Part shown: positions 11,433 through 53,325 of the stretch, one piece after another | Layout: the number at the start of each line of letters is the position of its first letter | Position numbering within the stretch: the stretch's first letter is position 1 | DNA from: Gammaproteobacteria bacterium Ga0077536 | GTDB lineage: Bacteria > Pseudomonadota > Gammaproteobacteria > Ga0077536 | Assembly: GCA_001464935.1 (NCBI GenBank) | Contig: LNEL01000055.1 | Coordinates: forward strand, 83,056 to 147,055 | Length of the DNA stretch: 64,000 nucleotides | Reading direction: 5' to 3' | Made by a program: the position numbers and the translations under genes | The notes under the pieces: model-generated | What the model was told of the DNA's origin: nothing | What the model saw: the letters and a program-made list of their open reading frames with translations, nothing else | Databases searched by the model: none

Positions 11433-12470
11433 ATGGGTCTTCGATTCGGCGTACTGTGGCCATTCCGCAATCCGGCATTTGCGCGCGTGCCGTGGGAACA
11501 ACTGTACCGTACACACCTCGACCTGATCGTCGATTCCGAAGCGATGGGCTTCGATGACGCGTGGTTGACCGAACATCATTTCGTCGACGACGGCTACTCT
11601 CCGTCGCTGCTGCCGATCGCCGCCGCCGTCGCCGCGCGCACCAGCCGCATCCGCATCGGCACCTTCCTCGTGCTGCTCCCGATGCACAACCCGGTGCGCA
11701 TCGCCGAGGACACCGCGACCGTCGACCAGATCTCGAACGGCCGTTTCGAACTCGGCGTCGGTCTCGGTTACCGCCGCGAGGAGTTCGAGGACCAGGGCAT
11801 TTCGCACACCGAGCGCGGCGCCCGCCTGCAGGAAGGCATCGCCGTCGTGCAGCGCCTGCTGAGCGGCGAGTCCGTCACCCTCGACGGCAAGTTCAGCAAA
11901 CTCAAGAACATCCAGATCGTGCCGCCCGCGCTGCAGCGCCCGCACCCGCCGCTGTGGCTCGGCGCCCTCGCGCCGAAGGCGATCGAACGTGCCGCGCGCA
12001 TGGGCTTCCACTTCCAGGCCGTCGGCTCGACCGCGCTCGACAAGATCTACGACGAAGCGCTGGTCAAGCACGGACGCGATCCGCGCAACTTCAACATCGC
12101 GCAGCTGCGCGCGGTGTTCGTCGCGCCGAGTCGCGAGCAGGCGTGGGAACTCGCCGCGAAGCCACTGCACTACATGGCGACCTGCTACGCGAAGTGGTTC
12201 GCCGAAGCCGCCGACAAGCCGGGTGACGAAAAGGCGATGGAAGGCATTCCGACGGTCGACGAGATGATCAAGAAGCAGGCCTTCAGCTTCTTCGGCGAAG
12301 ACGCCATCGTCGGCACGCCGAAGGACGCGATTGAAATGATCGACGACTACCGCAAGCGCGGCCGCCTGACGCACATGGTGTGCGCGACGGCGCTGCCGGG
12401 TCTGGCGCCGCACAACGTGCGCGACAGCATGGCGCTGTTCGCCCGCGAGGTCATTCCGCGCTTCCGCTGA
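11433..12470 (+). CDS. LLM class flavin-dependent oxidoreductase
   Basis: 345 aa luciferase-like monooxygenase family protein. GGGGAG RBS. Confidence 0.85.
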   Translation: MGLRFGVLWPFRNPAFARVPWEQLYRTHLDLIVDSEAMGFDDAWLTEHHFVDDGYSPSLLPIAAAVAARTSRIRIGTFLVLLPMHNPVRIAEDTATVDQISNGRFELGVGLGYRREEFEDQGISHTERGARLQEGIAVVQRLLSGESVTLDGKFSKLKNIQIVPPALQRPHPPLWLGALAPKAIERAARMGFHFQAVGSTALDKIYDEALVKHGRDPRNFNIAQLRAVFVAPSREQAWELAAKPLHYMATCYAKWFAEAADKPGDEKAMEGIPTVDEMIKKQAFSFFGEDAIVGTPKDAIEMIDDYRKRGRLTHMVCATALPGLAPHNVRDSMALFAREVIPRFR

Positions 12471-32099: not shown

Positions 32100-34007
32100 A
32101 TGTGCGTTCTTCTCCGGCTCCCGGCTGCCGCCCTGCTGTGGCTCCTGATGCTTGCCCCTGCCAGCGCAGTGCGGGCCGACGCGGCTGAAGGCGCGCTGCT
32201 GATCCTGCTGTCCGATCAACCGGACGCGCCGTCACTGACCGACCGGCACCGCGCGCGACACACGGCGTTTCTGGCGCGGGCAGCGCGCAGCGAAGCCGCG
32301 ATTCGCCAGGCATTGCCGGCCGCTGTGCGCAAGCCGGCGCGGTTCGAAGCCCTGCCGGCCTTGAATGCCTGGCTGCTGCATGCGCCGGAGCACTCGCTAG
32401 CCGGGGCCTACGCCGCAATCAATGCTGCCAGCGCGCGCCTGGGGATCGTGCATGTCGCGCGCCATGGGCTGAACCTGTCACCGCCCGATGCACTGCCCAC
32501 TGCAGGCACCGCGCCGCTCGGGGCCGCCGCCGCCCTCTCGCCACGCCGCACACTCGGCATCATCGATCTCGGCGCCGATCTCTCGCACCCGCTGCTGCAA
32601 CGGGCACTGGGCCGCGTGCATGTCCAACCCGGCACGCCGGGGGCGGGCGCCGACGGACGACTCATTCGCTCGCACGGCACCGCAATGGCGGGCGTCTATG
32701 CGCAACTGCTGCAGGGCCAGCCGCTGCGCGCGGGCGGTGTCGACCTGCCGTGGCTCCGACTGCCGCGCGCGATCGCGCTGACCGACACCCTGGTCGCACA
32801 CGCCGGCCCCGAGACGCGGGCCGGCCGCAGCGATCTCGCGCGCGCACTGAACTGGATGCTGACGCCGACGCCCGATCGCCCGCTGCCGGATGTGATCAAC
32901 TACAGCCAGGGCAACGGCCGCCTGTGCGCGAGCGGCACGCCCGACTGTGATCCCGCGACCTGGGCCGGCGTGACGCGCGTGATTGATCGCCTCATCGACG
33001 AACTGGGCGTGACGGTGGTGAAGTCGGCCGGCAATCGCGGGGATCGCGACGACAACACGATGACGGTGCCGGGCGAGACCTTCAACGGCATCACCGTCGG
33101 CAACATGCATGCCTTCGACTGGCAGGCCTGCGCCGCAAGCGCCGAGCGTCGAGCGCACAAGATCTATCGCACGAGCAGCGTCGCGCCGGCGGCGCCCGCG
33201 CCGCGCCTGCTCGATGTCGTCGCGCCCGGCGTGCGCATCGACACCACGGGCGTGAATCCTGCGTACTGCCGGACCGTGTGCGATCGACGCTCCGATCTGC
33301 CGTGCAGCTTCTGCCCGCGGCTAGGCCGCTTCGAGGCCGCGCGCCAGAGCTACTGGAAGGTGAACTCGGGCACGAGTCCCGCCGCAGCGGTGGTCGGCGC
33401 GCTCGCGCTGTCCGTGATCGACGAGGGGCTTCGCGATCCGCGTGCCGTGAAGGCGCTGCTGATCAACAGCGCCGACACCTGGACCAGCGCAGACACCCCG
33501 CATCCGCGCGTGCGCGGCAACGGCGGCGGCTGCGAGGCGGACGTCACGGCCGCCCGGCACGCGCCGTACCCTTATGGCGCACATTACGATCGCCGCTACG
33601 GCTGGGGTTACGTGAACCCGGCTCGCCTGGCGCGGGAGCGCGCGCACACAGTCGTCGACTCGGCCGATGGGCCGCGCTGTTACGCGGCGACGCTCGAAGC
33701 CTGGGACAAGATAACGCTCGTCTGGCATCGACACGTGCGCAGCTGCGCTGGCTGCGAAATGGATGCGTCGTCCGCGCTGACCCGCCTGCACCTGGACCTC
33801 GTGTCGGTGCAGGACGCACGCACGATCGACAGCGACCGGGGCCAGAGTCCGCTCGACAACGTGCTGCAGGTATCGAACGGTCGCGGCCCGGCGGCTGCGC
33901 CGCGCGCGCAGGCCGTCATCGTGCGGGTCGACGCTGCCGCGGCGGAGTCCTATGCGCTCGCGAGTCCGCGCGCGCTGACGCGCCTGCCGTCGTGCCCGAC
34001 GCCGTGA
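32100..34007 (+). CDS. S8 family serine peptidase (subtilisin-like), secreted
   Basis: Signal peptide, then the Asp (IIDLGAD), His (HGTAMAG) and Ser (SGTSPAAAVVGA) catalytic motifs. Start at M356 of a 990-aa track ORF whose 5' part is antisense junk. Confidence 0.8.
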   Translation: MCVLLRLPAAALLWLLMLAPASAVRADAAEGALLILLSDQPDAPSLTDRHRARHTAFLARAARSEAAIRQALPAAVRKPARFEALPALNAWLLHAPEHSLAGAYAAINAASARLGIVHVARHGLNLSPPDALPTAGTAPLGAAAALSPRRTLGIIDLGADLSHPLLQRALGRVHVQPGTPGAGADGRLIRSHGTAMAGVYAQLLQGQPLRAGGVDLPWLRLPRAIALTDTLVAHAGPETRAGRSDLARALNWMLTPTPDRPLPDVINYSQGNGRLCASGTPDCDPATWAGVTRVIDRLIDELGVTVVKSAGNRGDRDDNTMTVPGETFNGITVGNMHAFDWQACAASAERRAHKIYRTSSVAPAAPAPRLLDVVAPGVRIDTTGVNPAYCRTVCDRRSDLPCSFCPRLGRFEAARQSYWKVNSGTSPAAAVVGALALSVIDEGLRDPRAVKALLINSADTWTSADTPHPRVRGNGGGCEADVTAARHAPYPYGAHYDRRYGWGYVNPARLARERAHTVVDSADGPRCYAATLEAWDKITLVWHRHVRSCAGCEMDASSALTRLHLDLVSVQDARTIDSDRGQSPLDNVLQVSNGRGPAAAPRAQAVIVRVDAAAAESYALASPRALTRLPSCPTP

Positions 34008-34037
34008 GGCCGGACTGAACGCCTTCGCCGACCTCGC

Positions 34038-34679
34038 TCACCAGCGCAGCACGCGCGGGCCGACGAGCGCCCCGACGACGGCGGGCAGCAGCATCCCGAG
34101 CACGTACCACACGCCGATGAAGGGCGCTGCGAGTTCGGGACAGTGGAGCGCGTAGACGCCGGCCGCGGCCGCGCCTGACAGCAGACCGGCCGCAGCGCCG
34201 GCAAGACGCAGGCGGGTCGGCGCCAGCCCACGCAGCGCCCACAGCGTGGCCAGCAGCATCGGCACCGACAGGCTCCCGATATACAGCGGACAGACCCGCC
34301 AGGTTTCGCCGAACAGCAGCGCCGGACGCGTCGCGGGTGCGGCGCCCAGCAGCGCGAACGCGGCGACGCTCCAGATCACGGCCACCGGGATCACGAGCCA
34401 CACCGCGCTGGCGCCGAGCGTCGCCCCGGGACGGGCGAGCCTGGCCGCCACGCGCAGCGCCCCGGCGCACAGCGCCAGCGGCAGCGCGAGCTTCAGCCAG
34501 AACATCGGCAATGTTGCGACCTGCAACAAATCAGGCTGCAATCCCAGCGTGGTCAGCATCTGGCACGCGGCCACCGGCACGCTTGCGGCGAGGGCCAGCG
34601 TCCAGCGCCGCTGCGCGACGCCCGGCGGCGTCGGCTCGAGTCCGCGCGCGAGCATCTGGACCAGCTCATCGGTGTTCAT
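34038..34679 (-). CDS. nrsF: NrsF-family anti-sigma factor (DUF1109, six TM helices)
   Basis: Membrane protein directly downstream of and overlapping the ECF sigma gene. Confidence 0.75.
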   Translation of the reverse strand: MNTDELVQMLARGLEPTPPGVAQRRWTLALAASVPVAACQMLTTLGLQPDLLQVATLPMFWLKLALPLALCAGALRVAARLARPGATLGASAVWLVIPVAVIWSVAAFALLGAAPATRPALLFGETWRVCPLYIGSLSVPMLLATLWALRGLAPTRLRLAGAAAGLLSGAAAAGVYALHCPELAAPFIGVWYVLGMLLPAVVGALVGPRVLRW

Positions 34680-35190
34680 CGCGACCTCCCAACAGGCTGC
34701 GCGCGAGGGCCTTCATGCCGCGGTGGATGCCGATCTTGACCGCCGACGCGGACATGCCCGTGCGGGCTGCCGCCTCCTCCACCGACAAACCTTCGAGTTT
34801 GACCTGCTCGATCGGCAACCTGAAACGGGGCGGCAGTTCAGCCAGCAGCCTGCCCAGATCCCGGCGCGCGGTCGCGGCGTCGTGCAGGCTGTCTTCGACG
34901 AGGGCGTGGCCATCGTCTTCGGGCAACGGATCTTCCGCGCGGCGCGTGTCGCGACGCAGGTGATCGATCAGTTTGTACTTCGCAATCGCATGCACCCACG
35001 GCGTGAACGGCTCCTCCGGCAGCCAGGTATGGCGTTGGTTGTGCACGGCGATCAGGGTTTCCTGCACGAGATCCTCTCCGCTGTCCGGGTCGCCACTGAG
35101 CCGGCGACGGAAAAATGCCCGCAGATGGCCGCTCAGCGCGAGCAGCAGCGCCTGGTAGGCCGCCGCGTCACCGCGCTGGGCCTCGATCAT
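34666..35190 (-). CDS. ECF RNA polymerase sigma factor (sigmaF-like)
   Basis: Sigma-70 regions 2 and 4 (LVQETLIAVHNQRHTW...EQVKLEGLSVEEAAARTGMSASAVKIGIHRG). Start set at M31, downstream of the autoregulatory promoter. Confidence 0.75.
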   Translation of the reverse strand: MIEAQRGDAAAYQALLLALSGHLRAFFRRRLSGDPDSGEDLVQETLIAVHNQRHTWLPEEPFTPWVHAIAKYKLIDHLRRDTRRAEDPLPEDDGHALVEDSLHDAATARRDLGRLLAELPPRFRLPIEQVKLEGLSVEEAAARTGMSASAVKIGIHRGMKALARSLLGGRDEHR

Positions 35191-35242
35191 CAGGGCCTTG
35201 AACTTCGCTTCGACCGTATCCAATGCGGTGTTACTCGGTGAG

Positions 35243-35268
35243 TTCGCTGGCGGCGGTCCGCCGGTTAC
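35243..35268 (-). promoter_or_regulatory. ECF-type promoter GTAACC-N16-CGAA driving the sigma/anti-sigma operon
   Basis: The minus strand reads GTAACC GGCGGACCGCCGCCAG CGAA about 45 nt upstream of the proposed sigma start. Confidence 0.6.
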
Positions 35269-35313
35269 AGCACGGTGCAAAAGATTTCGTTCCGCCTATT
35301 TTCGCACGCCGAT

Positions 35314-35339
35314 GTAACCGGTAGCGATAACGCGACGAA
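35314..35339 (+). promoter_or_regulatory. ECF-type promoter GTAACC-N16-CGAA driving the bufferin operon
   Basis: GTAACC GGTAGCGATAACGCGA CGAA about 75 nt upstream of bufA. Same motif as the divergent promoter above. Confidence 0.65.
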
Positions 35340-35413
35340 CTAGCTCCTCGACCGCCAGCCGCCAGCCCGGTGCGGCGCCTGGCCCCCCATCCACCTCGAG
35401 GAGTTTGACCATC

Positions 35414-35686
35414 ATGAAGGATCATTCAATTACCCTGACCGCGATTGCCCTCAGTGCGCTGGTGTCCGGTGCCGCGATGGCGGCCGATACCGCCCCGGCC
35501 AAGGAGAAATGCTACGGCGTGTCACTCGCCGGCCAGAACGACTGCGCGGCCGGTGCGGGCACTTCGTGCGCCGGCACGTCGAAGGTCGATTACCAGGGCA
35601 ACGCCTGGAAATATGTGCCGGCCGGCACCTGCACGACAATGAAGACGCCGAGCGGCATGGGTTCGCTGACGCCGGTCGAAGGCTGA
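35414..35686 (+). CDS. bufA: bufferin-type RiPP precursor (DUF2282), Sec signal peptide, four Cys
   Basis: [23 protein letters not shown]|[52 protein letters not shown]...; GAGGAG RBS. Confidence 0.8.
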
Positions 35687-35698
35687 GGTCAGGCCGCC

Positions 35699-36547
35699 AT
35701 GAGACTGTCCGCGGGCTTGAGTCTGAAGCCGGCCCACCTCGCCGCTGCGGAGGAGAGCGACGCGGACGGTCTCTGGTTCGAAGTGCATCCCGAGAACTAC
35801 ATGGTCGACGGCGGGCCGCGCGCGGCCTGCCTCGATCGCCTGCGGGCGCGCTACCCGCTGTCATTGCACGGTGTCGGCCTGTCGCTCGGGGCCTGCGCCA
35901 CGCCCGATACGGCGCATCTGCGCCGTCTGCGACAACTGTGCGAGCGACTCGAACCGGCGCTGGTGTCCGAACACCTCGCGTGGTCACGCTGGGACGACTT
36001 CTGCCTGCCCGATCTGCTGCCAGTGCCACGGACCGCCGAGGCGCTGGCCTGCGTGTGTCGCAACGTGTCGATCGTGCAGGACGCGCTCGGCCGCGCGATC
36101 GCAATCGAGCACCCCTCGCACTACCTGCACATTGCCGAGCACGAAATCGATGAACCGGCGTTTCTCGCCGAACTCTGCGCGCGCACCGGCTGCGGCCTGC
36201 TCGTCGACGTCAACAATGTTCACGTCAGTGCCCACAATCTCGGCCTCGATGCGGCAGCTTGGCTCGACGCCATCCCGGCCGCCGCCGTGCACGAAATCCA
36301 CCTCGCCGGACACAGCGCGGATCCCGTGCTCGGCCCGGCACTGCTGATCGACAGCCACGACACGCCCGTCAGTGCCACCGTGTGGACGCTGTATCAGCGC
36401 CTGCTCACCCGCATCGGACCCCGCCCGACGCTGATCGAGCGCGACGATCGGCTGCCCGGGTTCGAGGTCCTGATGCAGGAGCGCGGCACCGCCGCCGCGC
36501 TGCTGGCCGCGGCCGTCGTCCCGGCACGCGCGATGCAGCACGCATGA
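35699..36547 (+). CDS. bufB: MNIO (DUF692/UPF0276) multinuclear non-heme iron oxidase
   Basis: 282 aa TIM-barrel DUF692 (LHGVGLSLG, EHLAW, HLAGH). Confidence 0.85.
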   Translation: MRLSAGLSLKPAHLAAAEESDADGLWFEVHPENYMVDGGPRAACLDRLRARYPLSLHGVGLSLGACATPDTAHLRRLRQLCERLEPALVSEHLAWSRWDDFCLPDLLPVPRTAEALACVCRNVSIVQDALGRAIAIEHPSHYLHIAEHEIDEPAFLAELCARTGCGLLVDVNNVHVSAHNLGLDAAAWLDAIPAAAVHEIHLAGHSADPVLGPALLIDSHDTPVSATVWTLYQRLLTRIGPRPTLIERDDRLPGFEVLMQERGTAAALLAAAVVPARAMQHA

Positions 36548-37299
36548 GCCTGCACGCATTCCAGCAGCAGTTCCACGCGGCACTGTGGCACGACGCGTCG
36601 ACGGCATTGAGCGCGCAGCCCGGCTTCGCCGTGTATCGCAATACGGTGATGAAGGGCTGTATCGATGCGCTGGTGGCCAACTATCCGGCCGTGGTCTCGC
36701 TCGTCGGTGAAGACTGCGTGCGCGCGGCGGCCGCCGTGCATGTGCGTGCAGCGCCGCCCACGCAACCGATGCTGCTGCAGTACGGCGCAGGCTTCGCCGA
36801 TTTTCTCGCGCACTTTCCGCCGGTCGCGGCGTGGCCGTGGTTGCCGGCCGTGGCCCGGCTCGATCGGCACTGGACCGAAGCGCATGTGGCCGCCAATGCG
36901 CCCTGCGCCGACGCCGCCCTGCTCGCGACCTGCGCGCCCGATGTGCTCGGCGCGCGCTGCCTGCAACCGCATCCCGCCGCGCGCTGGCTATGGTGTGGCG
37001 AGGCACCGGCCCTGAGCCTGTGGCAGATCAATCGCGGCGAGCGCCCGCTGCCGGCCGCCGGGCTGTCGTCGCTGCCGTGGCACGGCGAAGGCGCCCTGAC
37101 GACGCGCCCGTTCGACACCGTGCGCGTGAGCGCGCTGCCCGCGGCGGGCTGCGTGCTGCTCGACGCCTGCGCGCAAGGCGCGACGCTGGCGGCCGCGGTC
37201 ACCGCGGCACTGGCCGTCGCACCGACGCTCGATATCGCCGCGCTGTTCGCACAGCTGCTGACGATGGGCGCCTTTGCGGCCAGCGATCCGGCTGCATGA
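36544..37299 (+). CDS. bufC: DUF2063 partner protein of the MNIO
   Basis: [17 protein letters not shown]... typical DUF2063 N-terminus. ATGA overlap with bufB. Confidence 0.8.
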
Positions 37300-37322
37300 A
37301 CACCTCAACAAAGGAGCATACG

Positions 37323-37790
37323 ATGTCGTACCAGACCAGGCCGGACATCGGCGTCCCGGCCATCGCTGCGTTCAGGGACACCGTGAACGCTTTGCTCGAA
37401 CGCATTCCGGAGGCGTTGATCGGTCTTGCGGCGCGGCTCGGGGTGGCCGCGATCTTTTTTCTGTCCGGCCGCACGAAGGTCGAGGGCCTGATCTCGCTGA
37501 AGGACACCACGTACCTGCTGTTCGCGGAGGAATATCGTGTGCCGCTGCTGCCGTCGGACATCGCAGCGCACCTCGCGACCTATGCCGAGCACCTGCTGCC
37601 CGTGCTGCTCGTGCTGGGACTCACGACCCGGTTTGCCGCGCTCGGCCTGCTCGGCATGACGGCCGTGATCCAGGTGTTCGTCTACCCCGACGCGTGGCCC
37701 ACCCACCTGACCTGGGCGGCGCTGCTGCTCTATCTCGTCGCGCGCGGCGGCGGTGCCTGGTCACTCGACCGCTGGCTCCGCCTCGGCTGA
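37323..37790 (+). CDS. DoxX family membrane protein
   Basis: 155 aa with four TM helices. Perfect AAGGAG RBS. Confidence 0.85.
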
Positions 37791-37803
37791 GCCGCCGGCG
37801 CGA

Positions 37804-39009
37804 TCAGATCAGCGGCGAGTTCTGCGGCAGGCCGAGCAGGATGCGGCCGTACATCTCGAGGTTCGTGCGGTGCGTGAGAATGCCGTGCAGGCTCGAAGTG
37901 TTGATGTCGCGCCAGATCCGCTGCAGGGGGTTCGACTCCCCGAACGCCGAGCCGCCGCTCGCCGACACCAGCAGGTTCACCGCTTCGCGCGCGTAGTGCA
38001 CGGCGCGACTGCAGTCCATTCGCATGCGCGCGCGGGCCGCGAGATCCGGATAGGAGCCAGCCGCGGCGAGGCTGTCGATGTCGTCCGCGGCGCGATACGC
38101 ATGCAGGTGCGCGGAGTCGATCAGCATCGCGGCCTCGGCAATCTGTTCGTGTGTGACGGGCGCGTCGATCTGGCGATCGTAGGAGGTGTAGATGATGCCG
38201 CGCGAGGGCATCTGCTCACCGAAACAGTCGAGCGCCGCGCGCGCGAGGCCGAGCGGCGGGCCGACGAGGATCATCACCAGCACCGGCATGAAGCCGGCAC
38301 GATACAGCGCCTCGTCCTTGTGTTCGGTCAGGTAACGGCCTTCGATCGCCCCGGTCAGCGACATCACCCGGTGATCGGGCACGAAGACTTCCGTGCCGAC
38401 GAGCGTATTGCTGCCCGTGCCGCGCATGCCAACGGAGAACCAGCTGTCTTCGATCGCAAGTTCGCTCATCGGGATCAGCGCAAAGCCCTGATCGACGACC
38501 GCGCCTGCGTCATCGACGACGGGGATACCCACCGCCGCCCACTGCGCGTGCAGGCACGCTGACGCCCACGGCCACTTGCCGGTGACGACGTATCCGTCGG
38601 CGACCCTGCGCGTGGTGGCGCGCGGCGCGACCACGGCACAGACGCGGGCATCCGGATCGGCGCCGAAAATCTCGGCCTGCACGCGCGCTGGGTACAGGCC
38701 AATCACCCACGAGCACATGTTCAACAGCGCCGTGACCCAGCCGGTCGAGCCGCAGGCGCGCGCGATCTCGCCCGAGATCGTGATCGTCGTGCGCAGATCG
38801 GCCTCTGCGCCGCCGTAGCGACGCGGCGTCGACACCCGCAGCAGGCCGGCCGCGCGCAGCGCGTCGATGTTCGCGTCGACGACGCGCCGCCCTGCCTCCG
38901 TCGCGGCGGCGTTGTCGCGAATCAGGGGAAACAGTTCGCGCGCCCTTTCGATCAGCGGGCCGGCCTCGAGCGGGGCACTGTGGCTGCGATACGGCAGGGC
39001 CTGCGACAT
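37804..39009 (-). CDS. acyl-CoA dehydrogenase family flavin-dependent monooxygenase
   Basis: 401 aa from M44 (AGGAG RBS); ACAD fold. Confidence 0.8.
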   Translation of the reverse strand: MSQALPYRSHSAPLEAGPLIERARELFPLIRDNAAATEAGRRVVDANIDALRAAGLLRVSTPRRYGGAEADLRTTITISGEIARACGSTGWVTALLNMCSWVIGLYPARVQAEIFGADPDARVCAVVAPRATTRRVADGYVVTGKWPWASACLHAQWAAVGIPVVDDAGAVVDQGFALIPMSELAIEDSWFSVGMRGTGSNTLVGTEVFVPDHRVMSLTGAIEGRYLTEHKDEALYRAGFMPVLVMILVGPPLGLARAALDCFGEQMPSRGIIYTSYDRQIDAPVTHEQIAEAAMLIDSAHLHAYRAADDIDSLAAAGSYPDLAARARMRMDCSRAVHYAREAVNLLVSASGGSAFGESNPLQRIWRDINTSSLHGILTHRTNLEMYGRILLGLPQNSPLI

Positions 39010-42192: not shown

Positions 42193-43095
42193 TAATTGGG
42201 GACAGATCTATTTAATCTGTTTAATCGCATCAACAGTCGCGCTCGAGCCGCGGTCCGCGCGGCCGGCCGCGGGGCCTGAGCTCGATTCGCCGGCCTAAAA
42301 TCGACGCCACTTCTTCCGTAAATCGTTCGCCTCCCGTCAGATGGCCCCGTTGTATCCCCATTAGAATCAAGTCCCCCTCGGCCGGTGGTAGCGGCTCACG
42401 CAGGTAGTCGCGCCACGCTTGCACGAGCGGCGGTGAATTGGAGGACCATGCGTCGTCCAGGAGCTGCGGCTCAATCAATCCAAGGCGTTCCTGGCAGCTC
42501 GACCAGGGATAATCCTCTGGCGCGACGGCGATACCGGCGCGCACCGGGTTCAGTTCGATGTAGCGGCAGCAGGCATGGAGATAGGCCTCGCTCTGGACGA
42601 CGCTCGACTTGTAGCGGCCGTCCCAAAGCGTGCCGGTGCGACGCTCCTGTGCGTTGTGATAACGCGTTTGGCGCCCGGCCAGGCGCTTCATCAAACGCGC
42701 CAGGCTGTCCTTGCGCGCCGGCACGAGCAGTAGATGCACGTGATTGGTCATCAGGCACCAGGCGAACACCCGAACTTCGCATTCGGCCTTCAGTGCAGAA
42801 AGCGAATCGAGATATCGTAAATAGTCGGCAGCCTCCGCAAACGTGGCCTGTCGATTGTGTCCGCGCTGGACCACGTGGTGGGGATACCCCGGCATGACAA
42901 TACGTGCCATCCGTGGCATCGCTTGCGTCCTCTGTGACTGGAAACTGCACCCGTTGAAGGATGCCTGGAGGCTGCATTAAAGAACAGTCGTCGCGCCTGC
43001 GCTTTTCGCGGGGCGGAGCGGCATGCGGCGTGGGCGATAAAGCGGGGCTCGAAGTCAAAAATCGAAGTCAAAAACAGATCCGTCCCCTTTTTTCG
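42193..43095 (-). mobile_element. complete REP-RAYT-REP unit
   Basis: Left REP TAATTGGGGACAGATCTATTTAATC (42193..42217), the tnpA-like gene, and right REP CAAAAACAGATCCGTCCCCTTTTTTCG (43069..43095) in inverted orientation. Confidence 0.8.
42230..42919 (-). CDS. REP-associated tyrosine transposase (RAYT; IS200/IS605 Y1 TnpA-like)
   Basis: PGYPHHVVQRGHNRQ, HxH motif in CLMTNHVHLLL, catalytic Tyr region RYIELNPVRAG. Confidence 0.85.
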   Translation of the reverse strand: MPRMARIVMPGYPHHVVQRGHNRQATFAEAADYLRYLDSLSALKAECEVRVFAWCLMTNHVHLLLVPARKDSLARLMKRLAGRQTRYHNAQERRTGTLWDGRYKSSVVQSEAYLHACCRYIELNPVRAGIAVAPEDYPWSSCQERLGLIEPQLLDDAWSSNSPPLVQAWRDYLREPLPPAEGDLILMGIQRGHLTGGERFTEEVASILGRRIELRPRGRPRGPRLERDC

Positions 43096-51621: not shown

Positions 51622-53325
51622 TCAGAACAGGAAATAGCGCTGCGCGAGCGGCAGCTCGACCGCCGCGTCGCAGACCAGCAGTTCGCCGTTCGCCCGAACT
51701 TCGTAGGTCTGCGGATCGACTTCCATCGTCGGCTGCCAATGATTGTGGATCATGTCGGCCTTGCCGATGGTGCGCGTGCCCTTGACGGTGCCGATCAGCC
51801 GCCGCAGGCCGAGCCGCTCGACGATGCCGGCTTCGCGCGCCGCACGTGACAGGAAGGTCATGCAGGTCGCATGGCGGGCGCCGCCGAGCGCGCCGAACAT
51901 CGGGCGGTAATGCACGGGCTGCGGGGTCGGGATCGACGCATTCGGATCGCCCATCGGCGCGGCGACAATCATGCCGCCCTTGAGGATCAGCGACGGCTTC
52001 GCACCGAAGAACGCTGGCGACCACAACACGAGATCGGCGAGCTTGCCGGCCTCGACGGATCCGACCTCGTGCGCGATGCCGTGCGTGATGGCGGGATTGA
52101 TCGTGTACTTCGCGATATAGCGCTTGATCCGCGCATTGTCGTGACGCGACGGATCGCCGGCGAGGCTGCCGCGCTGCATTTTCATCTTGTGCGCGGTCTG
52201 CCAGCTGCGCGTGATCACCTCGCCCACGCGGCCCATCGCCTGGGAGTCGGAGGAGATCATCGAGAACGCGCCGAGGTCGTGCAGGATGTCTTCGGCGGCG
52301 ATGGTCTCGCGCCGGATCCGCGATTCGGCGAATGCAACGTCTTCGGCAATCGACGGCGACAGGTGATGGCAGACCATCAGCATGTCGAGGTGCTCGTCGA
52401 TCGTGTTGACGGTATAGGGGCGCGTCGGATTGGTGCTCGACGGCAGCACGTTCGGTTCGCCGCAGACCTTGATGATGTCCGGCGCGTGCCCGCCGCCCGC
52501 GCCTTCGGTGTGATAGGTGTGGATCGCGCGGCCCTTGAACGCGGCGACGGTGTGCTCGACGAAGCCCGATTCGTTCAGCGTGTCGGTGTGGATCGCGACC
52601 TGCACGTCGTGCCGGTCGGCGACAGTCAGGCAGTTGTCGATCGCCGCCGGCGTCGTGCCCCAGTCCTCGTGCAGCTTGAGCCCGATCACGCCCGCCGCGA
52701 CCTGCTCTTCGAGCGCGTGCGGCAGACTCGCATTGCCCTTGCCGGTGAAGCCTAGATTCATCGGCAGCGCTTCGGCGGCCTGCAGCATGCGGTGGATGTT
52801 CCACGGGCCGGGCGTGCAGGTCGTCGCGTTGGTGCCGGTCGCCGGGCCGGTGCCGCCGCCGATCATCGTCGTCACGCCCGACATCAACGCCTCTTCGACC
52901 TGCTGCGGGCAGATGAAATGGATGTGCGCGTCGATACCACCGGCGGTGACGATCTTGCCTTCGCCGGCGATGATCTCGGTGCCAGGGCCGATGATGATGT
53001 CGACGCCCGGCTGGATGTCCGGATTGCCCGCCTTGCCGATGCGGAAGATGCGACCGGCACGCACGCCGATGTCGGCCTTGACGATGCCCCAGTGATCGAC
53101 GATCAGCGCATTCGTGATCACGAGATCGACCGCTTCGTTGTTGCCGCGCTGGCTCTGGCCCATGCCGTCGCGGATGACCTTGCCGCCGCCGAAGCTGACT
53201 TCTTCACCGTAAATCGTATAGTCGCGCTCGACTTCGAGCACGAGCGCGGTATCGGCCAACCGCACGCGATCGCCGGTCGTCGGGCCATACAGTTCCGCGT
53301 AGGCGGCGCGCGAGATTCGGCTCAT
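51622..53325 (-). CDS. ureC: urease subunit alpha
   Basis: 567 aa; [26 protein letters not shown]... and a His-rich active-site region. Confidence 0.9.

Follow-up and report, generated by a model that had tools for sequence, protein, structure and literature searches.

A Buf1-type bufferin gene cluster with a divergent ECF16 sigma/NrsF pair in Gammaproteobacteria bacterium Ga0077536

Gene content of the locus

We analyzed a stretch of 64,000 nucleotides (here called the window) from Gammaproteobacteria bacterium Ga0077536 (GenBank assembly GCA_001464935.1, contig LNEL01000055.1, positions 83,056 to 147,055), and all coordinates below are those of the window. Six genes lie within 34038-37790. 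Two are on the minus strand: nrsF (34038..34679), encoding a 213-amino-acid membrane anti-sigma factor of the DUF1109/NrsF family, and a gene for a SigF-like extracytoplasmic function (ECF) sigma factor of the ECF16 type (34666..35223, 185 amino acids). Four are on the plus strand: bufA (35414..35686), encoding a 90-amino-acid DUF2282 bufferin-1 precursor; bufB (35699..36547), encoding a 282-amino-acid multinuclear non-haem iron oxidase (MNIO, DUF692); bufC (36544..37299), encoding a 251-amino-acid DUF2063 partner protein; and bufD/doxX (37323..37790), encoding a 155-amino-acid DoxX-family membrane protein. On the grounds of family searches, conserved residues and promoter motifs, we consider it highly probable that this locus is a canonical Buf1-type bufferin cluster, bufABCD, with its cognate divergent ECF16 sigma/anti-sigma switch, working as set out in the full model below. 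Bufferin clusters have already been characterized and catalogued, and the locus is a typical member rather than a new system.

Families were assigned by profile searches against Pfam and curated NCBIfam models. A preliminary description of this DNA had named the six-gene module at 34038-37790 and proposed searches with profile hidden Markov models for DUF2282, DUF692, DUF2063, DoxX and NrsF (DUF1109). All of these models matched and each protein hit its expected Pfam family strongly, including DUF692 and DUF2063 across 35699..37299 at 319 and 80 bits. The description was likewise right about the divergent pair of ECF sigma factor and NrsF anti-sigma factor, which both have Pfam matches and lie on the strand opposite to bufABCD, and about the ATGA overlap of bufB and bufC, which is seen at 36544-36547. 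Translational coupling is visible both in that overlap and in the 14 nucleotides shared by the sigma gene and nrsF, where nrsF begins before the sigma gene has ended. Elsewhere in the window, no paralogue of any module protein was found.

Conservation was judged against 80 related loci, obtained from a scan that took one genome per species, with BufB proteins 59 to 67% identical to the one studied here. These loci come from Burkholderiales, Pseudomonas, Xanthomonadales-type genera, Phenylobacterium, and many metagenome-assembled genomes, and residue conservation was counted on their aligned translated proteins. In this one-genome-per-species scan, no GTDB representative had a BufB of more than 67% identity. 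The host DNA is high in GC (~68%), and its best BufB matches are mostly from Burkholderiales or other betaproteobacteria (≤67% identity), while the single best match belongs to an alphaproteobacterial metagenome-assembled genome. Proteins exactly matching those of the window are also found in an NCBI contig and in JGI/ENA metagenomes, of which one bears the label activated-carbon metagenome.

The precursor peptide and its maturation proteins

BufA matches DUF2282 (PF10048) at 92.3 bits against a cutoff of 22.4 (E value, 1.8e-26; model positions 1-51 of 53). Its open reading frame opens with TTG at 35405 and has an ATG at 35414, and the ATG is most likely the start. The product consists of a signal-like N terminus of 23 amino acids and a 67-residue core, for which we computed an unmodified monoisotopic mass of 6630.02 Da. 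A cleavable Sec-type signal peptide had been proposed, and under a simple rule that considers a Lys in the n-region, the hydrophobic core and the residues at -3 and -1, its features are present: one Lys in the n-region, a hydrophobic core of 15 residues whose mean hydropathy is 1.89, and a predicted cleavage between AMA and AD, with Ala at both -3 and -1. The 12 aligned BufA relatives displayed also have an N-terminal hydrophobic stretch and small residues ahead of the predicted cut. The core contains exactly four Cys residues in the contexts K-C-Y, D-C-A, S-C-A and T-C-T, confirming the earlier reading of a four-Cys, 67-residue core. They occupy core positions 10, 21, 29 and 50 (precursor positions 33, 44, 52 and 73), leave a spacing of 8 residues between Cys II and Cys III, and are invariant in 79/79 relatives. 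In bufferins, Cys I and Cys IV form a disulfide, and modification falls on Cys II and Cys III (PMC11626156, PMC12452194). A sequence search of solved structures with BufA gave no meaningful match.

BufB matches the Pfam family MbnB_TglH_ChrH (DUF692) at 319 bits and the NCBIfam model NF050167, "MNIO family bufferin maturase" (MNIO_BufB), at 355 bits against a cutoff of 310. It stays below the NCBIfam cutoffs for HvfB (206.6 versus 360 bits) and MbnB (66 versus 325 bits), and it does not reach those for ApyH and ChrH. The solved structures nearest to BufB are 3BWW, 8HCI and MbnB. The iron ligands of MbnB are H54, H90, E133, D163, N166, H192, D208, H210 and E239 (PMC9060507). In an alignment with the sequence of the MbnB structure 7TCR, H90, E133, D163, N166, H192, D208 and H210 correspond to H92, E137, D170, N173, H201, D218 and H220 of BufB, and H57 and E247 of BufB match H54 and E239 by motif rather than by direct alignment. 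Each of the nine ligand positions is invariant in 80/80 relatives.

BufC matches DUF2063 (PF09836) over residues 6-88, at 79.6 bits against a cutoff of 27.2, and a sequence search of solved structures found no relative of it. At residue 58, BufC has a Cys (TGC, 36715-36717) where 78 of 79 relatives have Trp and the remaining one has Phe, and the neighboring residue 59 is Val (codon within 36715-36720) where the displayed relatives have Phe, Leu or Met. The Cys58-Val59 pair is also present in a second, near-identical strain whose BufC differs elsewhere (Ser19/Pro19), so the substitution is not a sequencing error. The last gene of the operon is preceded by a good AAAGGAG ribosome-binding site; its product matches the DoxX family (PF07681) at 62.4 bits and has three His residues (His83, His90 and His128) conserved in 63 to 68 of 68 relatives. 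A DoxX gene, frequent though not obligatory in Buf1 clusters, is present in 70 of the 80 related loci.

The sigma factor, NrsF and their promoters

The sigma factor matches the Pfam models Sigma70_r2, Sigma70_r4_2 and Sigma70_ECF and the NCBIfam model PRK12539 (207 bits versus a cutoff of 171). The preliminary description had taken its open reading frame as 34666-35280, and this start proved to be over-extended. The longer frame contains the sigma-facing promoter (35243-35269), two independent assemblies call a 185-amino-acid product from TTG 35223, and the N termini and start codons of homologous sigma factors align at 35223; for these reasons, TTG 35223 is most likely the start, with ATG 35190 as an alternative.

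NrsF matches its Pfam model at 226 bits over 204/204 model positions and has about six hydrophobic segments. In the predicted topology, Cys130 and Cys180 sit where helices 4 and 6 meet the periplasm, and both are invariant in 61/61 relatives, while the two other Cys residues of NrsF vary. In Caulobacter NrsF, the functional residues are C131 and C181, whose substitution derepresses the regulon (PMC3511200). Two other public assemblies of the same organism break within a very GC-rich stretch of nrsF (window positions 34143-34223), and the gene in the window is intact. An otherwise identical contig, L081, contains a 152-amino-acid nrsF, which we considered as a natural anti-sigma knockout and rejected: the truncation is due to a run of N in a scaffold gap (L081 4458-4525) and is an assembly artefact. 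Another contig carries a chimeric inverted join at the same GC-rich spot (L082 1-144).

The published recognition sequence of SigF is GTAACC-N16-CGAA (PMC3511200), and the ECF16 motif has also been written (T/C)GTAAC-N17-CGAA (PMC8315932). We found exactly two copies of TGTAACC-N16-CGAA in the window, where 0.10 would be expected. Both are exact matches located back-to-back in the 191-bp divergent region, one facing the sigma gene (35243..35269, minus strand) and the other facing bufA (35313..35339, plus strand). The -10 element of the sigma-facing promoter ends 19 nucleotides before TTG 35223, and this distance implies autoregulation and a very short leader. In the bufA-facing promoter, the GTAACC hexamer at -35 starts 100 nucleotides before the bufA ATG, for a predicted leader of ~65 to 70 nucleotides; in Caulobacter, the transcription start of CC3254 maps at -61 from the start codon (PMC3511200).

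Promoter conservation was scanned in the 81 loci that had a BufA match. An exact GTAACC-N16-CGAA was present on the sigma-facing strand in 61/81, mostly ~41 to 49 nucleotides before the sigma start, and on the bufA-facing strand also in 61/81, mostly 85 to 150 nucleotides before bufA. We also considered a third match in the window, GTAACC-N17-CGAA at 11745-11771 on the minus strand, as a possible regulon member. Since it lies antisense inside a 345-amino-acid open reading frame (11433-12470), with N17 as the less common spacing and without the leading T, we take it as a probable chance occurrence. No other SigF target is visible in the window.

A candidate RNA structure in the bufA leader

About 11 nucleotides past the -10 element of bufA lies a GACCG box, and relatives share (C/T)TA(G/C)C followed by GACCG at this place. 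In the minimum-free-energy fold of the window leader, the box pairs with a CGGTC-like 3' arm, forming the base of a predicted hairpin (35350..35384, plus strand) with a variable loop; 4 of the 5 base pairs form in the window. Across 30 related leaders chosen by hand, pairing in the base helix reached 86.7%, compared to 20 to 55% with the partner slid; 13 double-sided changes were counted, versus 5.5 in shuffles, and none of 500 shuffles attained as high a covariation score. Leaders of relatives (L002-L080) contain compensatory base variants, namely, GATCG/CGATC, GACTG/CAGTC and GCCG/CGGC. When all 54 leaders were used, box-anchored helices averaged 5.76 bp versus 4.79 bp in shuffles, and a swap control gave 0.30 versus 0.13. 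An Rfam scan of 33800-38000 with E values up to 1 returned no family.

We regard this as moderate evidence for a conserved 5' stem-loop in bufA leaders. It is possible, though we put it forward only tentatively, that the Buf1 bufA leader carries an undescribed conserved cis-acting RNA hairpin (GACCG...CGGTC) a few nucleotides into the transcript. A second structure in the window leader, a helix of ten base pairs between 35342-35351 and 35396-35405, covers the GGAG ribosome-binding site (fold z score, -2.9). We rejected it as a conserved feature: only ~20% of 59 related leaders pair the ribosome-binding site with the 5' end (median z score, -0.55), and the helix is lineage specific.

Distribution and relation to known systems

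The identical six-gene layout was found in 54/80 relatives and the divergent sigma-nrsF pair in 62/80, and this module with two promoters is the commonest layout among the beta-, gamma- and alphaproteobacterial relatives fetched. In Caulobacter, nrsF (CC3252) and sigF (CC3253) adjoin CC3254-3257, which are bufABCD (PMC3511200, PMC11626156), and a survey of MNIO clusters from 2025 treats the genes for sigma and NrsF as components of Buf1 clusters (PMC12452194). The preliminary description had presented the condensation of the whole regulon into one module as something special to this locus. Because the Caulobacter layout, the survey and the 54/80 relatives agree, a condensed regulon is instead the norm, and the 64-kb window is too small to judge whether the six genes are the whole regulon. 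The claim that such systems are rarely annotated held in part. It fits the labels given in JGI to close relatives from the 90% clusters ("hypothetical protein" or "uncharacterized membrane protein"), the exact window sequences being without a source name, but current Pfam and NCBIfam models do name the proteins.

The nearest characterized system is buf1 of Caulobacter vibrioides (bufA1B1C1D1, CCNA_03363-03366, equivalent to CC3254-3257), which has the same six families with an adjacent sigma/anti-sigma pair. The likeness extends to GTAACC-N16-CGAA upstream of both the buf operon and sigF, to a four-Cys precursor with a Sec signal and a core of 67 residues here versus 68 there, to aligned NrsF cysteines (130/180 here, 131/181 in Caulobacter), and to bufA leaders of ~65 to 70 and 61 nucleotides, respectively. 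The 8-residue spacing of Cys II and Cys III also appears to match that of Caulobacter Buf1, as judged from the residues adjacent to the heterocycles (PMC11626156). The locus differs from Caulobacter in its different, high-GC host, in the Cys58 that replaces a conserved Trp of BufC, and in that no buf2 cluster is visible within the 64-kb window. Operons resembling gig ("gold-induced genes"), which occur in Cupriavidus metallidurans and further Pseudomonadota and are today counted as Buf1 clusters, share the DUF2282-DUF692-DUF2063-DoxX core by description; they are stress induced (PMC11626156), and the Cupriavidus Buf1 serves as a structural example in PMC12452194.

The regulatory half of the module resembles those of Azospira suillum and of Brucella melitensis (BcrS/AbcS-bcrXQP), in which an ECF16 sigma-nrsF pair also diverges from a single target operon, with (T/C)GTAAC-N17-CGAA promoters in both directions and two conserved anti-sigma Cys residues. 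These systems differ in their cargo, msrPQ-mrpX (a peptide rich in methionine together with a methionine sulfoxide reductase), and in responding to a reactive chlorine signal, whereas the cargo here is a bufferin cluster.

The enzymatic half resembles two further systems in which an MNIO and a partner protein likewise modify peptide Cys residues to copper-binding heterocycles, namely, HvfABC of Haemophilus influenzae (oxazolin type, Buf_EGKCG) and MbnABC of methanobactin, and the iron-ligand set is shared. We considered membership in each and rejected it. Unlike in HvfABC, BufA has no EGKCG repeat, and neither the HvfB model (score given above) nor the HvfC model (21.7 versus 142 bits) was reached. 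Unlike in MbnABC, the partner is a DUF2063 protein with no MbnC, export/uptake machinery is absent, the precursor has a Sec signal, and BufB falls far short of the MbnB cutoff.

Variant arrangements occur among the related loci. In a Herbaspirillum locus, a second NrsF-like gene (L017 3786-4451, minus strand) lies between the sigma-facing promoter and the sigma gene, such that two anti-sigma paralogues flank the sigma gene. Five other Herbaspirillum/Collimonas loci (L029, L030, L034, L042 and L062) have the same ~1-kb gap between sigma and bufA and probably also contain an extra NrsF-like gene. In a Dyella metagenome-assembled genome (L053 4005-5825), nrsF lies directly upstream of bufB and no match to sigma or bufA was detected; the locus may have been rearranged or have decayed.

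In the window, the module is flanked by unrelated convergent genes, with a peptidase S8 gene ending at 34007 and an acyl-CoA dehydrogenase gene ending at 37804. Gene calls on the identical contig L081 place a Y1 (IS200-type) transposase-domain gene at ~42230-42547 (minus strand), ~4.5 kb downstream of the module. The Rfam family 5_ureB_sRNA matches strongly at 52890-53176 (plus strand; 117 bits), which most likely reflects no more than the 5' portion of a urease ureB gene. A search of the window for tRNA and rRNA genes found none.

Proposed function and inducing signal

We propose a model in which the presence and integrity of the parts and promoters are read from the DNA and the functional steps all follow by homology. 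At rest, the six-helix membrane protein NrsF would hold the sigma factor. Periplasmic stress, from copper or other thiol-reactive metals as in Caulobacter or from oxidants as in some relatives, would act via Cys130 and Cys180 of NrsF to free the sigma factor, which would then direct RNA polymerase to the two back-to-back TGTAACC-N16-CGAA promoters. Transcription of sigma-nrsF would provide both positive feedback and resetting of the switch, while the other promoter would transcribe bufABCD. In the cytoplasm, BufB and BufC would oxidize core residues Cys21 and Cys29 of BufA to 5-thiooxazoles; the precursor would then be exported by Sec, cut after Ala23, and closed by a disulfide between core residues Cys10 and Cys50, and the 67-residue product would sequester Cu(I)/Cu(II) in the periplasm. 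DoxX may be an accessory membrane protein, as it is not needed for modification in Caulobacter. Work on the Caulobacter bufferin has reported its thiooxazoles, a mass shift of -10 Da and its copper affinities, and has found BufB and BufC to be required and DoxX to be dispensable (PMC11626156). The shift previously suggested for the peptide studied here, -4 Da per thiooxazole plus one disulfide, agrees with that total of -10 Da.

Several points weigh against this model. NrsF does not reach its NCBIfam equivalog cutoff (127 versus 300 bits), and the HvfC (21.7 versus 142 bits) and HvfX equivalog cutoffs are also unreached, so that these three assignments rest on Pfam. The signal peptide of BufA is a prediction made by a simple rule only. 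Cys58 and Val59 of BufC could weaken or alter the partnership between BufB and BufC. Finally, the inducing signal is uncertain, because ECF16 systems answer different stresses in different bacteria: elsewhere, sensors of the NrsF family are triggered by Cr/Cd, hypochlorite or reactive oxygen (PMC3511200, PMC8315932, PMC4436054). Copper as the inducing signal is an extrapolation and is the weakest point of the model.

This last point leads to an alternative in which the parts are the same and the trigger is different, with NrsF answering mainly reactive chlorine or oxygen and the bufferin belonging to an oxidant response. Chlorite/hypochlorite is sensed in Azospira (PMC4436054), and HOCl (hypochlorous acid) in Brucella (PMC8315932), by SigF/NrsF homologues that share the two Cys residues and the promoter motif, and homologues in Caulobacter and Bradyrhizobium have been described as responsive to reactive oxygen species (PMC4436054). 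The exact proteins studied here also come from activated-carbon and related JGI metagenomes, a habitat that, we assume, may involve chlorination. However, the operon controlled in the oxidant-sensing cases is msrPQ/mrpX rather than bufABCD (PMC8315932, PMC4436054), and Caulobacter bufABCD is induced by Cu, Cr and Cd, whereas compounds that generate reactive oxygen do not induce it (PMC3511200, PMC11626156). We consider an oxidant trigger unlikely.

A second alternative concerns chemistry rather than regulation. The enzyme pair might install a methanobactin-like oxazolone-thioamide, instead of 5-thiooxazoles, on the central Cys residues; the two products have equal mass and are hard to distinguish, and closely related MNIOs have been assigned either chemistry (10.64898/2025.12.15.693703, 10.64898/2026.06.05.730506). 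The chemistry of bufferins has been debated, with recent reports favoring the thiooxazole. Nuclear magnetic resonance and labelling of bufferin support thiooxazoles (PMC11626156, 10.64898/2025.12.15.693703), and the enzyme encoded here scores as BufB (355 bits) and not as MbnB (66 bits versus a cutoff of 325), which makes an oxazolone-thioamide product very improbable. Very improbable as well is an impaired cluster, in which Cys58 and Val59 disable the BufB-BufC complex and BufA is exported unmodified or partly modified: the Trp (Phe in a single case) of relatives is indeed replaced by Cys in this lineage, but all reading frames are open, the other conserved residues checked and both promoters are intact, and the sharing of Cys58 with a second strain that differs at Ser19/Pro19 suggests that it is tolerated.

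We therefore return to the bufferin model as the preferred reading of the locus, which can be labelled with confidence as a cluster for bufferin-1, a periplasmic copper-chelating peptide that is made on the ribosome and modified after translation (a RiPP), together with its SigF/NrsF switch. This label adds little beyond annotation, and the leads that it leaves are modest: the loss of a near-invariant Trp in BufC, and the conserved leader hairpin, which, if real, could stabilize a stress-induced mRNA or tune its translation.

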